This document shows, one piece after another, positions 27,101 to 33,561 of a stretch of DNA of 64,000 bases. Each line of letters starts with the position of its first letter. Positions within the stretch are counted from its first letter, which is position 1. The notes beneath the pieces are model-generated. The model did not search any database and was not told where the DNA came from. It saw nothing but the letters and a program-made list of their open reading frames with translations. A program made the position numbers and the translations under genes. The DNA lies in assembly GCF_965139275.1 (NCBI RefSeq), contig NZ_CBCSLE010000005.1; one strand, 5' to 3'. Source of the DNA: Corallococcus exiguus. Its GTDB lineage: Bacteria > Myxococcota > Myxococcia > Myxococcales > Myxococcaceae.

Positions 27101-27213
27101 CCGGTGCTTCACCCTGCTACAGGTGTTCGCCTTGCTCCGGAATTGGTGTTCGGCTTGTCCCGGAGCCGGTGTTCGGCTTGCTCCGGAATCGGTGATCGGG
27201 ATCGTCCGGAGCA
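27101..27213. repeat. Tandem array of about 4.5 x 23-bp repeats (consensus GGTGTTCGGCTTGCTCCGGAATC)
   Basis: Units at 27122-27144, 27145-27167, 27168-27190 and 27191-27213, plus a degenerate unit 27101-27121. Lies about 200 bp upstream of the lipoprotein gene at 27420. Confidence 0.6.
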
Positions 27214-27419: not shown

Positions 27420-28484
27420 ATGCAGCGCTTTGTCCTCTTGGGTCTTGCACTGCTCACGGCCTGTGCAACGCCTGTCCATCAGGCCGCATCGCCTGTCCAG
27501 CCCAGCCCGGTCTACGTGTTCGAAGGCGTGGAGGTGTTCGGCTCACGCAAGGTGCCCAAGGGCAAGCTGCTGGAGGTCATTGGGATGCCTGCGCCCGGCG
27601 CGCGCTTCAACCTCGAGAAGGGGGAGTTCACGCCGTACCTCATGGAGAGCAAGCCGCGGCTCCTGGCGGCCTACAAGTTCGCGTTCTGCAGGTACTCGAT
27701 GGTGGCCTACCCGCCGACGCGGACGTTCCGGGTGACGGTGGATCTGGTCGATGCCGGAGATGAGTGGCGCATGCCCTTTTCACCCGCGCCGCAGGGCGAT
27801 ATCCCGGAGCCGGAGGGCCTCCTCACGGCCTGGGATGAATACCAGACGGCCTACTGGAAGCTGAGCAGGGAAGGGGCTGTCCCCGAGTACGGCAAGAGCA
27901 AGTGCCATGCCCTCAACTGCCATGGAGGATTCGACCACCCCGAGCTCGCGCCGCTGGAGCAGCGCTTCATGGATGGTGTTCCCCGCAATCTCGACACGCT
28001 GGTGCGGGTGCTGCGTGAGGATCGCAACGACTCCAAGCGAATGGCCACGGTCATGCTCCTGCCCTACATCAACTCACGCGAGCAACTGGTGAAGCTCGTT
28101 CTCCCGTCGGTGCGCGACCCCTACGAGGGTGTGCGCAACGAGGCGCTGCGCCTGCTGGGAACGATGCAGGAGGGACAGCCGCGGGTCATCATCCCGCTGG
28201 AGCCCGTGCTCGAAGCGCTCTGGTACCCGCTCGAGACCGACCGCAACAAGGCAGCCTGGGCGCTCGTGCACATCGTGGAAACCGAAGGCGCCGCCCAACA
28301 GCGGCAGATTCTCGACAAGGCGGGCGCGGTGCTGGTGGAGATGGCTGGAATGCAGCAGAAGACCGATGCCGAGCCTGCTCGCAAGGTGCTCGCCATCCTG
28401 GCGGGGCGGGACCTGGGTGACGAGCCGGCGGCCTGGCACCGTTGGGTCGAGCAGACGCTCGGCTCGAACAGTGCCCATCGGTGA
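27420..28484 (+). CDS. Hypothetical lipoprotein
   Basis: Lipobox LALLTACATP. 354 aa, no recognisable catalytic motifs. Alpha-helical repeat-like C-terminal half. Confidence 0.55.
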   Translation: MQRFVLLGLALLTACATPVHQAASPVQPSPVYVFEGVEVFGSRKVPKGKLLEVIGMPAPGARFNLEKGEFTPYLMESKPRLLAAYKFAFCRYSMVAYPPTRTFRVTVDLVDAGDEWRMPFSPAPQGDIPEPEGLLTAWDEYQTAYWKLSREGAVPEYGKSKCHALNCHGGFDHPELAPLEQRFMDGVPRNLDTLVRVLREDRNDSKRMATVMLLPYINSREQLVKLVLPSVRDPYEGVRNEALRLLGTMQEGQPRVIIPLEPVLEALWYPLETDRNKAAWALVHIVETEGAAQQRQILDKAGAVLVEMAGMQQKTDAEPARKVLAILAGRDLGDEPAAWHRWVEQTLGSNSAHR

Positions 28485-28536
28485 CGAAGATGCTGCGAAG
28501 GCGGCAGTACGGGGGGCGTAACCCCTGGAACGCATT

Positions 28537-28602
28537 GGCGGTAGGGCACGGGAATCGAACTCGCCAGGGACTGCTCTCGCAGCCCCTCACCGGTTTTGAA
28601 GC
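28537..28602 (-). repeat. 66-bp partial copy of the tRNA-Sec 3' end (att-type direct repeat)
   Basis: 64/66 nt identical to 33463-33528 (anticodon loop through CCA). No matching 5' acceptor strand upstream, so it is not a functional tRNA. Confidence 0.7.
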
Positions 28603-28749
28603 CCCGCCACCCCGATCCGCGAGGTGCCCGGGGGGATTGAGGGTCGGCCGGTTTCCCTCTGGCGCGGGGTGGACCGCGAGTCCGTAAAGGTCCACCCGCG
28701 TCCGTTCATCTTGGGTACAGCTTGGGTACGCGGGTAGGGACGGCAGGGG

Positions 28750-29358
28750 TCAGGGGGCATTGGCTGCACCGGGGCCGGTCACGTCCGTGAACTTCGTGCC
28801 GGTGATGACCGCGCGCTCCAGGGCCTCCTTGATCTCCTCGGACACGATCAAGGCCACGGTCCAGCCCCAGGTGCGGAACACCTTGGCGCCTTCCACCTTC
28901 GCCGGGTCGATGCGCATCCCGGACACGGAGGAGTACGTACCCACCTTTTCGGGCATCCCGTCCTCCGGGGTCCAGTAACGCACCTCCTCGCACGCTGCAT
29001 CGTCGATGCACTTCACCAGCCGGGTGGCGTTGAGGATGAAGTGCTGAGCGGGCTGGGAGTCGATCTCCACCGGGATGAGCTGCACGTCGTCGGGTGCCAG
29101 CTCGGTGAAGAAGGAGGCCACCCGGGCGTGGACGACGGGGATGCTGAATGCCGCGTGGGAATAGTCGAGCGGTTTGCCGGAGATCTTGATGGGGATCCTG
29201 ATGCGCTCGTCCGAGTGAGCCCGCTGCCCGATCCTGAACTGCCACGGGTCATCGAGCTTGCGCCCTTCCTGATCGAGAGGATGCCCCAGCTCCCACCGGC
29301 CGGAGAGGTACACATCATCGCTCAACTTGAAGAACCGCGTCGGCATGAAGTCGTCCAT
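28750..29358 (-). CDS. Hypothetical protein, candidate (second) immunity protein of the toxin module
   Basis: 202 aa, cytoplasmic. Last gene of the three-gene minus-strand operon, 10 bp after the preceding ORF. Family uncertain; possibly resembles DUF1629/Imm11-type immunity proteins, from memory only. Confidence 0.45.
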   Translation of the reverse strand: MDDFMPTRFFKLSDDVYLSGRWELGHPLDQEGRKLDDPWQFRIGQRAHSDERIRIPIKISGKPLDYSHAAFSIPVVHARVASFFTELAPDDVQLIPVEIDSQPAQHFILNATRLVKCIDDAACEEVRYWTPEDGMPEKVGTYSSVSGMRIDPAKVEGAKVFRTWGWTVALIVSEEIKEALERAVITGTKFTDVTGPGAANAP

Positions 29359-29368
29359 CCGAGGCGGG

Positions 29369-29719
29369 CTACTCTGGATCGAGCGCCCAGGTTCCTTCTT
29401 CCCAGCGCTTCAATGCCTGCCCGGCTTCAAAGGGAACGAGCCCCTTGCCCTTGGCGGCTTCCTCCAGAACCGCCTTCGCTTCGGCCGTCCGGTAGCGGAG
29501 CAGATGGGCGGCGGCCATGACACGCACATCCATGCGCTCATGCTTGAGCAGGACGAGGAGGGCATCACGTCCTGCGTTTCCATGGGCCAGGAGCGTATCG
29601 ACGGCGGCACCGTACTTCCTGGCGTGCTTGTTCCCGGTCTTGGCATCTCCCCGGAAGATGGCCTCGGTCTGTGCCGCCACGTTCAGGGCGAACTGCTCGA
29701 CCAATCTCTCCAACGTCAT
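29369..29719 (-). CDS. Small helical hypothetical protein, candidate cognate immunity protein
   Basis: 116-117 aa ORF. Its ATG (29717-29719) shares one nt with the toxin TGA stop (29719-29721), the usual toxin-immunity coupling. Confidence 0.45.
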   Translation of the reverse strand: MTLERLVEQFALNVAAQTEAIFRGDAKTGNKHARKYGAAVDTLLAHGNAGRDALLVLLKHERMDVRVMAAAHLLRYRTAEAKAVLEEAAKGKGLVPFEAGQALKRWEEGTWALDPE

Positions 29720-31074
29720 CACCAGACCCCCTTCGCCACGTTCTCCATGGCCAGCAGCCCGAAGTCACGCTGGGCCTCGTAGGACTGCGTGCTCAACCAT
29801 TGCCTCACGGTCAAGGTGCTGGAGCCCGTGATACTACGCCGGATCGACGAGTAGAGCGCGCTGACGTCGGTGTGCAGGATCTTGTCCAGTGGGATGAGGT
29901 TCTCGGTGTTGTGGAGGGCCTGGGGGCCGAAGCGCTTCACGTTGCCCGGGGTTTGCTCGACGATGTGGTGCCACTCCTTGTTCTTGCCCGCCGGGCCCAT
30001 GGCCTTCTTGAAACCACTGAACGAGCTCCAGGCCCTGTAGCCCAAGGGACGCGCCTTGGCGGAGGCGCTGCCGCCCGTGGCTTTGGCCGCCATGGCCACC
30101 GCGCCGGGCGCGAGGGCGATGGTGACGGTCTCGGCGCTCACGGCCACCGTTCCCACGTCCGCGACCGCCGCGAGCCTGATGCCCATTTGCGCTTCAGCCT
30201 GGACCGCCGCCTGCGCGGCGCCTGGGAGCATTGGCACCTTCGACCCCAGCCCCGCCGCCGTGTTCCCAATGGCGGCCGTGGCCAACATGGCGAACGCGCG
30301 CGCCGCGTTGCGGCCCATGACCTTGCCGTAGCGCTCACCCGCCTCGCGGAGTTCGTCAAACGTGGTGGCCCGCTCCGCCTCCTCCACCAGCTGCTTGAAG
30401 CCCAAGATGAGGCTCCAGAACGTATCGACCCCGACGTAGGCAATGAGGGAGGCGGTCATCACGGCGGCCACGCCCTTCGAGAAAGGCTCGGGCACCGCGA
30501 GCAAGATGCAGTACGTGGTCCACGTCCAAAGAACCGCAGCCATCATGGCCTGGGGATCAGCCATCTCTTTGAAGGCGTCCATCATCTCGTCCCGCACGAC
30601 GCCTTGGGCCAAGGCCATGGCCAGGGCGTAACGGCCATCCCCGGTGACAGTAGGGCTCTCCACCAGGAGGCGCAGGCAATCGCCGGGATTGCTCGTTCGC
30701 TCGCACCAGCGCAGGTATGCGCGCGTCAGATCCACCTCTGTCGAGGGGAGATCACCGTCCAGGTGTTCGCCCGGTCCCAGCGGGATGACACGGTGGCTGC
30801 GCGGCTCGTACAGGTATGAACCGCTGCGCGGATCCATCTCGAAAAACCGCCGGGCCGTTTCCTGGGGATGAGTGGACGGACGTACGTTCCGGGCGAGCGC
30901 TTCTACGGCTTCAACGAAGTCGTCTTCGTCCAGCGCCACCGGGGCGGTATCGCCGCTGCGTGGGGTAAGGACGATGGACTCGCCGTGGCCCGTGTGCAGG
31001 CGCACGGACTTCGTGGTGCCGCTGCATCCAGCCAGCATCACGAGCAGTAGGAGAATTGACCATCGTGGCAGCAT
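29719..31074 (-). CDS. Lipoprotein polymorphic toxin with C-terminal WHH-type (HNH/EndoVII superfamily) nuclease domain (SitA-like architecture)
   Basis: Start at ATG 31072-31074 gives signal MLPRWSILLLLVMLAGCSG (lipobox). Long Ala-rich helical central region. C-terminus KEWHHIVEQTPGNVKRFGPQALHNTENLIPLDKILH carries a W-H-H...N...H pattern as in WHH nuclease toxins. Confidence 0.6.
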   Translation of the reverse strand: MLPRWSILLLLVMLAGCSGTTKSVRLHTGHGESIVLTPRSGDTAPVALDEDDFVEAVEALARNVRPSTHPQETARRFFEMDPRSGSYLYEPRSHRVIPLGPGEHLDGDLPSTEVDLTRAYLRWCERTSNPGDCLRLLVESPTVTGDGRYALAMALAQGVVRDEMMDAFKEMADPQAMMAAVLWTWTTYCILLAVPEPFSKGVAAVMTASLIAYVGVDTFWSLILGFKQLVEEAERATTFDELREAGERYGKVMGRNAARAFAMLATAAIGNTAAGLGSKVPMLPGAAQAAVQAEAQMGIRLAAVADVGTVAVSAETVTIALAPGAVAMAAKATGGSASAKARPLGYRAWSSFSGFKKAMGPAGKNKEWHHIVEQTPGNVKRFGPQALHNTENLIPLDKILHTDVSALYSSIRRSITGSSTLTVRQWLSTQSYEAQRDFGLLAMENVAKGVW

Positions 31075-31291
31075 GCGGAGCCCTCCTGGCGCGGGCCCCC
31101 TTCGCTCGGGAGCGTATCGGCGGCGCAAGGCCTAGTAATACCAGATAGAGCTGACAGATGCTCCGGGCTGACGCCGTCTGTGGTGGAGCGTGTGCGGCCG
31201 ACGGCGTGCCTTCTGGAACGTCACGCCGAGAGAGAGCGTGCGCTGTCAGCCCGGTCACCACAGCTTGAGCGTGAAAGGCCCCACCGAGCAC

Positions 31292-31585
31292 CGGACGGTT
31301 ACCTTCGTCTCCGACGCGCGCCTGCCCTTGGACAACAACCGCTCCGAGGCAGCGCTGCGCAAAGCGGCGCTGGGCCGGAAGAACTTCCTCTTCGTCGGCC
31401 ATGAGGCCGCGGGCGAAAACCTCGCTGGCCTCTACGCCCTCGTCGCCACCTGCGAAGCCAACGGCGTCAATCCCGAGGCCTACCTCGCCGACATGCTGCT
31501 GCGCGTCCAGACGCACCCGCTTGCGCGCGTCGGCGAGCCGCTGCCGCACGAATGGGAGCGGCTTCGCGCCGCCGACGCTTCCTGA
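31292..31585 (+). pseudogene. IS66-family transposase (TnpC) C-terminal fragment
   Basis: VTFVSDARLPLDNNRSEAALRKAALGRKNFLFVGHEAAGENLAGLYALVATCEANGVNPEAYLADMLLRVQTHP...EPLPHEW matches the conserved C-terminal about 100 aa of IS66 TnpC (LDNN..E...R.....RKN.LF.GS..GG). No N-terminal about 400 aa and no inverted repeats found. Confidence 0.7.
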
Positions 31586-31779: not shown

Positions 31780-33378
31780 CTATTCACCAACAGGGGTGTC
31801 GATTGGTGGAACACCTTCCTTCTGTTGGGGGACCTGTGCAGAGGCGTTTGCCGGCTGTGCGGCAAGGTGAGTTGGAGTCAAGGAAGGGCTTGCATGAAGC
31901 ATAGCTCTTAAGTCGTTTTCGATTTCAGAGAGTATTTTGAGATGAAATATGGCGAACTGGTCGGGATTGAGTCCTTGAGGAGAGGCTGCGCCCGAGAGTC
32001 TCTTGAAGACGTCCGCATGCTTCCTTCGTTTGACCGCTACTTTGTTGCCCTTTCCATGATCGACGTCGTGTCTGATTTCTGTGCGAAGCGTGTTTACATC
32101 TATGAAGGAAGAAGGTGGCGACTCGCCGAGTCGCTCCCCAGGGCCTTCCCACAAAAGAAAGTAAAGGTTGTCGATCAGCTTTTCATATTCTGCGACGTCC
32201 GAAATCAAAACTCCAAGGCTTCTCTGTGCCTTCAGGGTTTTGTTTGTTGGCTTGAAGAGGTCTTTGCCGGTGGCGGATTGAGATTTTGTGTTTATCTGCT
32301 CAATCAGTTCTGCGATTTGTTCTGCCTTGGCGAGGACGTCGGCCTTAGGAGTCGTTTTGGCGATGGCTGTGGCGCCAAAAGCACTGGCCAGTTCAGGGTT
32401 TTTGGTGAGGAGCTTTTTGGTGAGGATGCGCTGTCGGGCCTCTGGGCCGGATTTGATATTGGCGTTGATTGTCTTCTGGAATTCGAGGTAGTCGCGATCG
32501 GTGGCCTTGACCCCTAGTTCTACTTGCTTGGAAAGCTCTTCTGTGAAGGCTTCGGCGAAGCTGGAGAACACCGTCTCGTGTCCAACGGCCTTTCCTGCTG
32601 AGACGAGCGTTGCCGCAAGGGTGAAGATTGATTGAACTATGGTCCGGTTGTGTAGTGCTGGGGAAGGGGCGGGAAAGGATTTGTCGAGAAAGGCTAGTGT
32701 TGATGTGATTCTTTTGGCGACCGCTGATTTTCTTGAGAATGTCGAGTTGTTTTCGAATATCAGCTTGAGGTCGTCAAAGCGAAGGCCTGTTGTGATCCCC
32801 TTGATTTCGATTGCGCAGGCCTTGGCGGCAATGTCGAGATGTGAGTGGCGGTAGTCCTCGACTTGGCATTTTGACTTGAAAAAACTGTGCTTTGATACGT
32901 CGAGTGCGAAGTCGCGCAATTCGCTGTGAATGGCGTTTAGTCTCTCGCTGCTCGTGAGCGGAAGTCCGAGTTGGAGTCTTTGAAAGAACTCCTTGAGGTC
33001 TGATTCAATGGCCCCGGTGATTACGTCGTACTCGATCTCGAAGTCATCGAATTTGTCTGCTATCGCAGTTGGGAGTTCTTTGTAGAGTTTCCCTCCCATT
33101 TGAGTGGGAGAGTCCATAGGGATCTCAAGCTCATTTCCAAAGAAGCGCCAGATGGCCTGAAGGCGCTGCTGCCCGTCGACCACTTCGTACTGGTCGCTGT
33201 CGTTGGACTTCTTGACAAAGTAGAATTTTGGCAGCTTCCATCCGCGTAGGATGCTGTCGATAAGATTCTGCTGAAGCTTTTTGTCCCAGACTTTCCCGCG
33301 TTGCCAATCTGGAATCTCATAGCGACCGCGCCGTGCATAAATCTTGTCGAGAGACCTCTTCTCTGATCTCATTTCCAT
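31780..33378 (-). CDS. DUF262 (ParB/GmrS-like N-terminal NTPase domain) protein with uncharacterised C-terminal domain; candidate defence gene
   Basis: N-terminus YEIPDWQRGKVWDKKLQQNLIDSILRGWKLPKFYF...VVDGQQRL is the DUF262 signature. Gene GC is about 50% versus about 70% for flanking DNA. Confidence 0.75.
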   Translation of the reverse strand: MEMRSEKRSLDKIYARRGRYEIPDWQRGKVWDKKLQQNLIDSILRGWKLPKFYFVKKSNDSDQYEVVDGQQRLQAIWRFFGNELEIPMDSPTQMGGKLYKELPTAIADKFDDFEIEYDVITGAIESDLKEFFQRLQLGLPLTSSERLNAIHSELRDFALDVSKHSFFKSKCQVEDYRHSHLDIAAKACAIEIKGITTGLRFDDLKLIFENNSTFSRKSAVAKRITSTLAFLDKSFPAPSPALHNRTIVQSIFTLAATLVSAGKAVGHETVFSSFAEAFTEELSKQVELGVKATDRDYLEFQKTINANIKSGPEARQRILTKKLLTKNPELASAFGATAIAKTTPKADVLAKAEQIAELIEQINTKSQSATGKDLFKPTNKTLKAQRSLGVLISDVAEYEKLIDNLYFLLWEGPGERLGESPPSSFIDVNTLRTEIRHDVDHGKGNKVAVKRRKHADVFKRLSGAASPQGLNPDQFAIFHLKILSEIENDLRAMLHASPSLTPTHLAAQPANASAQVPQQKEGVPPIDTPVGE

Positions 33379-33462
33379 GCTCGTGACCTCCTAAAAACGC
33401 TGTTGTGAGTAGAGCGTCCCGCAACCCGTTCAGGGCCGCGTCAGAAAAACCCAAGGAAAACA

Positions 33463-33561
33463 TGGCGGTAGGGCACGGGAATCGAACTCGCCAGGGACTG
33501 CTCTCGCAGCCCCTCATTGGTTTTGAAGACCAAGCCGGCCACCAGGTCCGGAGGCCCTACC
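33463..33561 (-). tRNA. selC: tRNA-Sec (selC-like; anticodon UCA)
   Basis: rc sequence GGTAGGGC-C-...-TTGGT-CTTCAAA-ACCAA-[GGGCTGC-GAGA-GCAGTCC variable hairpin]-..GTTCGATTCCC..-GCCCTACC-G-CCA. 8-bp acceptor stem, anticodon loop CUUCAAA, long extra arm and about 99 nt length, all as in bacterial selC. D-arm and T-stem pairing are imperfect in my hand fold. Confidence 0.6.

Follow-up and report, generated by a model that had tools for sequence, protein, structure and literature searches.

What does a DUF262 protein act through when its C-terminal half is not a recognisable nuclease? DUF262 proteins are sensors of modified or foreign DNA that either carry a His-Me DNase (GmrSD, BrxU, SspE) or act with separate partners (Menshen, Dazbog, PD-T4-2). 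The question is raised by a gene at positions 31780–33378 of a 64,000-nucleotide stretch of Corallococcus exiguus DNA (contig NZ_CBCSLE010000005.1), which at its full length we refer to as the window. The 532-residue product is the same as an NCBI entry named "DUF262 domain-containing protein [Corallococcus exiguus]" (100% identity and coverage) and is built of three modules: a DUF262 NTPase with an intact DGQQR motif, a helical middle domain that is probably DNA-binding, and a C-terminal helical module of ~170 residues (the C-terminal domain, CTD) that is found in a variety of other proteins. The reading we favour, and to which we give slightly less than an even chance, is that this is a defence protein with a HEPN-like RNase as its effector.

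A first-pass annotation made from the sequence alone had placed a DUF262 signature in the N-terminal 230 residues. The signature is present, with DGQQR at residues 68–72 (33163–33177) and a Pfam GmrSD_N (PF03235) match at E=2e-20 (74 bits, the cutoff being 33), but the match covers residues 15–135 only. Motif I (QRGKVW at residues 26–31, of the form QRxxxW) is intact, as is motif II (the DGQQR); motif III (FQRLQ, residues 132–136; 32971–32985, minus strand) reads FxxxQ instead of the canonical FxxxN, and its Q136 is invariant across a 36-sequence family alignment. PADLOC, a check that the annotation had proposed, returns no family for the CTD, and its best match in the N-terminal part is NsnA (E=2e-27), over residues 3–197 only (profile positions 46–249 of 385). 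HEC-05, HEC-06 and Orf5 give weak PADLOC matches within the first ~80 residues, PD-T4-2_A matches the first 82, and the best structural matches for the N-terminal part are BrxU and SspE. The middle domain is common to a second tier of DUF262-HNH relatives of ~410 residues, which align by tblastn with residues 23–330 at 28–34% identity and cease to match at about residue 330. A 'ParBDB' DNA-binding domain follows DUF262 in NsnA, GmrSD, SspE and DndB (PMC12065111), and by analogy the middle domain is probably of this type. The C-terminal half of ~300 residues that the annotation took to be unrecognised is thus two domains, the shared one at about 136–326 and the CTD at 327–498, and only the ~170 residues of the latter are truly without an assignment.

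No Pfam, NCBIfam or PADLOC family matches the CTD, even at E≤10 and with one-by-one scans of 26 core and 26 divergent copies. An AlphaFold2 (AF2) model of the isolated domain contains helices only, with a predicted local distance difference test score (pLDDT) of 90.1 and a predicted template modelling score (pTM) of 0.84, and its closest fold similarities are generic helical bundles. His-Me, HNH, PD-(D/E)xK and HD folds are absent from its search lists, and the earlier statement that the C-terminal half is not a DUF1524 domain is borne out by this all-helical model and by searches of Pfam, NCBIfam, PADLOC, the PDB and with Foldseek, none of which gave a DUF1524 or HNH match. Two other matches were discarded. 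A Cas_Csm6_HEPN match (E=0.066, in one of 26 members) is noise, occurring amid ~20 unrelated families and not reproduced in ten further members, and a PDB profile match to the phage 80alpha fibre gp62 (6v8i, E=0.006) is spurious, with the conserved RTxxxHD block aligned to unrelated residues. We also note weak matches to Pfam MauJ (PF17419; E 0.07–0.11) in two very divergent copies of the module, in the same relative region of each (context: residues 357–458 of the window protein, and P0212), which may reflect either remote kinship or chance.

The CTD is mobile between protein architectures. A CTD-only profile run against 1.84 billion cluster representatives recovered 621 at E≤1e-3 (287 at E≤1e-10), many of which are gene fragments. 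There are divergent lineages with the DUF262-CTD order (P0199, P0211), proteins in which an N-terminal extension, DUF262 and HNH precede the CTD (P0212, P0244), one in which it follows GmrSD_N and GmrSD_C (P0268; PADLOC HEC-05 at E=5e-55 over residues 5–538, CTD at 565–722), one with a NucS-like PD-(D/E)xK domain followed by the CTD (P0243), and three with a reverse transcriptase (RT; RVT_1) followed by the CTD (P0222, P0228, P0232). In others the CTD comes after ~230–380 residues of Pfam-blank sequence (P0226, P0256, P0261, P0229), or stands at the N-terminus and is followed by 320 residues of uncharacterised sequence, blank in both Pfam and PADLOC (P0246). Proteins of these architectures have no informative name in public sources. 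Partners that are blank in Pfam and PADLOC (P0246, P0226, P0256, P0261, P0229, P0242, P0266) are possible further sensor domains; one family of ~400–430 residues has the CTD after a helical N-terminal region, and in P0229 it comes after a 380-residue uncharacterised region.

Three of these arrangements are informative as to the role of the CTD. First, the DUF262-HNH relatives end in HNH at the same place, so the CTD occupies the effector position. Second, P0268 contains DUF262, DUF1524 and the module together, and the module is therefore an add-on and not a diverged DUF1524. Third, RTs of clade-8 retrons have the effector fused at their C-terminus (Mestre 2020, PMC7736814). The RT part of P0232, which is from a Thermoplasmatota archaeon metagenome-assembled genome, matches PADLOC RT-Protease_XI, RT-TIR_XII and RT-Toprim_I-C (E~1e-116); its CTD spans residues 360–506, and in all three RT proteins the same CTD is at the position that the Toprim, protease or TIR effector takes in retrons of types I-C, XI and XII. 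Its presence in the retron effector slot supports an effector role for the module, and judging by sequence the RT-CTD proteins may be an undescribed clade-8 effector type. The window protein has no RT, and its relation to these retrons is through the common module only.

Scoring covered more than 1,256 homologues, of which the top 120 all have ~495 residues and 50–55% identity over 93% of the query, with PF03235 as the sole precomputed domain, and in the family alignment conservation runs from end to end as far as residue ~498. Named hosts include Acidobacteriota, Planctomycetota, Verrucomicrobiota, Chloroflexota, Nitrospirota and Bacteroidota, as well as Alpha-, Beta- and Gammaproteobacteria, Streptomyces and Saccharothrix, and identity of 50–55% across phyla indicates strong purifying selection over the whole protein. 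None of the neighbouring open reading frames (ORFs) is shared among 24 homologous loci; neighbours at some of them are ParE toxin-antitoxin pairs, NotI and MmeI-type restriction-modification (R-M) genes and conjugation genes. The DUF262-CTD family is a stand-alone, horizontally moving gene, and from its sequence a single-gene anti-phage system is plausible. With over 1,000 members in many phyla it joins a DUF262 sensor to a different output module in one polypeptide, which no domain database annotates, and the architecture is not described in the Menshen domain survey (PMC12065111), the PNAS 2025 survey of ParB folds or the HEC preprint.

Conservation within the CTD is concentrated in a small number of residues. 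Among 83 diverse copies only N363, F375, K376, T378, L405, Y406, E411, G412, G414, R432, H437, D438, H441, G442 and K450 are conserved in at least 90%, with R432 and H437 at 98–99%. In an alignment of copies with 20–33% identity to that of the window protein (alignment A4), N363, T378, E411, R416, R432, H437 and H441 are invariant. Near-invariance of so few residues at this level of identity is, as far as sequence can tell, what one expects of a site for catalysis or ligand binding rather than of a domain conserved for packing only. The most prominent feature is a block with the consensus R432-[T/N/L]-x-x-x-H437-D-x-[D/E]-H441-G, which is invariant in family alignment A1; the peptide EIRHDVDHGKGNKVAVKRRKHADVF corresponds to residues 434–458.

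The arrangement of these residues resembles a HEPN RNase site. Such a site has been described as an Rx4-6H where a core helix passes into the next loop, the R usually being followed by a polar residue, together with a conserved acid in helix-2 and an insert that varies and separates helices 2 and 3 (Anantharaman 2013, PMC3710099). The same paper lists ParB-HEPN and ParB(DUF262)+HNH+HEPN fusions. In the AF2 model the CTD is an all-alpha up-and-down helical bundle, as HEPN domains are, and R432-T-E-I-R-H437 has the required spacing and placement, with R432 ending a helix (423–435) and H437 in a loop (436–443). Most copies have T or N directly after R432, E411 is invariant with an acid-to-R spacing of Ex4-7R, not Ex3[KR], and there are indels between helix 395–411 and helix 423–435. 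The predicted helix and loop position and the indels match the HEPN active-site description, and E411 may correspond to the acid that a HEPN site has beside its Rx4-6H in space; the assignment is made by analogy, from the motif, its position and the logic of domain architecture only.

A mechanism can be proposed on these grounds. By analogy with GmrSD, BrxU and SspE, the DUF262 and middle domains would recognise foreign, possibly modified, DNA, and binding and hydrolysis of nucleoside triphosphate (NTP) would act as a conformational switch that licenses the C-terminal module. This module would most likely be a metal-independent HEPN-like RNase with a predicted active site made up of E411, R432 and H437 (the Rx4H) and the nearby D438 and H441, and would probably be activated on dimerisation. 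Cleavage of RNA would then arrest the infected cell, with abortive infection or growth arrest as the outcome. If the module is an RNase, the family would offer a compact model of a ParB-type NTP switch licensing an abortive-infection effector. A broader claim, which we regard as a real possibility that falls short of being probable, is that the module is an undescribed and widespread effector of prokaryotic immunity, passed around as a cassette among DUF262 sensors, complete GmrSD proteins, NucS-like nucleases and clade-8 retron RTs. It would represent a family of HEPN-like RNases or else an all-alpha catalytic fold with the site E...R-x4-H-D-x-x-H-G, new in either case, and the window gene would then be a new single-gene DUF262 system that kills or arrests by way of RNA and not by restriction of DNA. 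Characterising the module once would annotate several defence architectures together and provide a candidate effector for defence-system catalogues.

Several observations weigh against an RNase-based defence role. No search by sequence, profile or fold found significant similarity between the CTD and HEPN families: member-by-member Pfam scans of the core and divergent copies (26 of each) gave only noise, PDB sequence and profile searches gave nothing relevant, and the best Foldseek E-value is 0.34, with the HEPN entry 4nqf appearing only at E=2. In some copies the residue following R432 is L, and the invariant D438, H441 and G442 lie outside the canonical HEPN motif and could point to metal binding or to another chemistry. 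The CTD often shares one protein with a DNase (HNH, DUF1524 or NucS-like) and could be a regulatory or sensor module instead of an effector. At the level of the family, defence-system catalogues do not enter it as a system, some homologues are set among housekeeping genes with wide intergenic gaps, and neither a full-length member nor a copy of the module is present in 72,556 plasmids and 50,697 phage records, where the only matches are to the N-terminal DUF262.

The alternative that survives best, although we think it unlikely, keeps the single-gene conflict system and gives the CTD a catalytic or ligand-binding function other than that of a HEPN domain. One form of it is a new all-alpha metal-dependent hydrolase with H437, D438, H441 and E411 as ligands, acting as a DNase, a phosphodiesterase or a nucleotide-degrading effector, and another is a sensor of a nucleotide or second messenger. 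The failure of every method to give a significant HEPN match fits this explanation, as does the mobility of the module across defence-type proteins, and a HEPN site needs less than what is conserved here, namely the H-D-x-[DE]-H-G block, in which two His and one Asp are invariant, and the invariant E411, N363, K376, T378 and K450. What the HEPN-like RNase has in its favour is the predicted placement of the Rx4H and of the acid described above.

A non-catalytic role for the CTD in oligomerisation or regulation, comparable with that of the C-terminal dimerisation domain of ParB, in a protein with no effector of its own, is improbable. As an NTPase switch that binds DNA, the protein might then serve, for example, as the sensor for a partner whose gene lies elsewhere or as a factor in silencing or a partition-like process, or it might be a remnant that has decayed. 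A regulatory role is conceivable because the module also follows complete nucleases (P0212, P0268 and P0243 already have them), the domain is a plain helical bundle closest to generic ones, and the order of NTPase, DNA-binding domain and C-terminal helical domain mirrors that of ParB (PMC12065111). However, a near-invariant cluster of polar and charged residues at 20–30% identity is atypical of a purely structural domain, and the CTD is the sole non-sensor domain in the DUF262-CTD and RT-CTD proteins, in the latter in the clade-8 effector slot. Nor is there a conserved partner gene nearby in the 24 loci, and the purifying selection indicated by 50–55% identity across phyla applies to the protein as a whole. 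That this is an ordinary GmrSD-type type IV restriction enzyme with a His-Me (DUF1524 or HNH) nuclease too diverged to recognise, as its BrxU- and SspE-like DUF262 and the weak HEC-05, HEC-06 and Orf5 matches in the first ~80 residues might suggest, is effectively refuted, since the CTD is all-helical and matches no known nuclease, and P0268 has GmrSD_C and the module as separate domains.

Compared with known systems, the protein is a candidate single-gene system of the DUF262 kind whose shared output module is unannotated; on sequence grounds it falls within the familiar modular logic of sensor and effector in immunity. With GmrSD, BrxU/HEC-05, HEC-06 and SspE it shares the N-terminal DUF262 and its DGQQR nucleotide-binding motif, and like the GmrSD family its own family is mobile and occurs in the vicinity of R-M and toxin-antitoxin genes; in contrast with GmrSD, the C-terminal DUF1524 His-Me nuclease (D/EHIxP) is absent and an all-helical module takes its place. 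The closest sequence relatives outside the family are the DUF262-HNH proteins (e.g. at loci L039, L041, L046 and L055), with DUF262 and the helical middle in common, but in place of the CTD of the window protein these have a classical HNH end (DHIxxxSxGGxTxxxNGQxxCxxCNxxK). NsnA of Menshen, the best PADLOC match, has DUF262 and then the helical 'ParBDB' domain, and a helical middle domain that is probably its counterpart follows DUF262 here, but NsnA has no CTD-like domain and is encoded next to its partners, the NsnB ABC ATPase and the NsnC effector. Membership of Menshen (NsnABC) was rejected, there being no NsnB or NsnC neighbours in the window or at the 24 homologous loci. PD-T4-2, with a DUF262 gene and a HEPN gene, would by analogy couple a ParB/DUF262 sensor to a HEPN-type RNase in the pairing proposed here, although it consists of two genes and its HEPN domain belongs to PF18735 in Pfam, a family with no match to the CTD. 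The ParB-HEPN fusions reported in 2013 (the 'Saro_3948' and 'VNG7073' HEPN versions) are likened to the window protein by description only.

The DUF262-HNH proteins form a widespread family in their own right (L030–L066; e.g. L041 7932–9182, L046 7932–9161 and L055 7827–9170), with HNH and not DUF1524. Their loci have no conserved neighbour, and only integrase-like or methyltransferase genes recur, in two to four loci.

The composition of the window gene is foreign. Its GC content is 0.511, against 0.686 for the window, and it is the lowest-GC 1.6-kb stretch within the 64 kb; at third codon positions (GC3) it has 0.587, against 0.76–0.93 in eight neighbouring genes. All 150-nucleotide sub-windows of the gene have a GC content of 0.43–0.57, so that low GC extends over the entire gene, which excludes a low-complexity patch as its source. 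Homologous genes are likewise lower in GC than their flanks in 21 of 21 host loci (L008–L058), by 0.02 to 0.18, from Saprospiraceae (0.29 against 0.41) to Streptomyces (0.56 against 0.71). This suggests continual lateral movement, a constraint on composition from a Lys/Glu-rich protein, or both.

The gene is in an islet of 4.86 kb between two copies of tRNA-SeC sequence (Table 1), selC being a classical site of island integration. The tRNA is the only one that ARAGORN finds in the window, the duplicated 69 nucleotides extend from the anticodon loop to the CCA, similarity ends abruptly on both sides, and the two repeats are 4927 nucleotides apart. The islet contains an Imm11 immunity gene, a DUF2019 gene, a gene for a 469-residue lipoprotein-like protein, an IS66 remnant and the DUF262 gene. 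No integrase gene was found among the islet ORFs, and the DUF262 gene is the only AT-rich one, the remainder having 63–69% GC; the islet is therefore a decayed mosaic remnant, of which the DUF262 gene is the latest arrival or the most foreign part. For the host genome this is a clear, datable insertion of single-gene cargo at selC. On composition, on the adjoining IS66 fragment and on integration at a tRNA the first-pass annotation was right, and GC3 adds to its interpretation of a horizontally acquired gene of defence type. The exact 532-residue sequence is confined to C. exiguus assemblies, and the only other contig with the gene also has it adjoining the same IS66 remnant.

Table 1. Positions in the window of the DUF262 gene, its domains and conserved residues, and the elements that border it
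Feature	Positions	Strand	Details
Complete ORF	31780..33378	-	532 residues, ATG start
ParB-like DUF262 (GmrSD_N) NTPase core, residues 1-135	32974..33378	-	Pfam and motifs
All-helical middle domain, residues ~136-326	32401..32973	-	tblastn match limits, secondary structure
Unannotated mobile C-terminal module (CTD), residues 327-498	31885..32400	-	Candidate HEPN-like effector; confident helical bundle
E411, near-invariant acidic residue ending long helix 395-411	32146..32148	-	Conservation and secondary structure; R416 after it
Near-invariant block R-T-E-I-R-H-D-V-D-H-G, residues 432-442	32053..32085	-	End of helix 423-435 and following loop
Predicted disordered, non-conserved tail, residues 499-532, and stop	31780..31884	-	pLDDT <50, unaligned in homologues, GC 0.57
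AGGAGG Shine-Dalgarno-like site	33387..33392	-	8 nucleotides upstream of the DUF262-gene ATG, read from sequence
Intact tRNA-SeC (anticodon TCA), integration site	33463..33561	-	ARAGORN; 84 nucleotides upstream of the DUF262 gene, same strand
Distal partial copy of the tRNA-SeC 3' part (33463-33531)	28536..28604	not assigned	69 nucleotides, 96% identical; far islet border
IS66-family transposase remnant, C-terminal ~100 residues only	31190..31585	+	Pfam DDE_Tnp_IS66 (PF03050) and IS66_C (PF13817); by the DUF262-gene 3' end

At the start of the gene, the homologue alignment begins at residue 1 of the protein, and a promoter scan found no sigma-70-like promoter upstream, a result that is uninformative for a myxobacterium. 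At the other end, the last 34 residues are rich in Pro, Ala and Gln, are missing from most homologues, and extend in the direction of the IS66 remnant. An IS66-associated rearrangement may have changed the native 3' end, although a few homologues (e.g. P0100) are similarly long-tailed.

The other islet genes include an apparent polymorphic toxin-immunity cassette (28750–31128, minus strand). In its 469-residue protein a lipoprotein signal (LLLLVMLAGC) is combined with the motif 'EWHHIVEQ...N' at the C-terminal end; the DUF2019 and then the Imm11 gene follow. We take this end to recall WHH/HNH-type toxin ends and the SitA-like lipoprotein toxins of myxobacteria. Pfam recognises both immunity genes and no toxin domain in the 469-residue protein. 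Just beyond the islet, in the intergenic region upstream of a HEAT-repeat gene (27420–28484), there is an imperfect tandem repeat at 27122–27212, with 3.4 copies of the 23-nucleotide unit GGTGTTCGGCTTGCTCCGGAATC or, alternatively, two copies of a 46-nucleotide unit.

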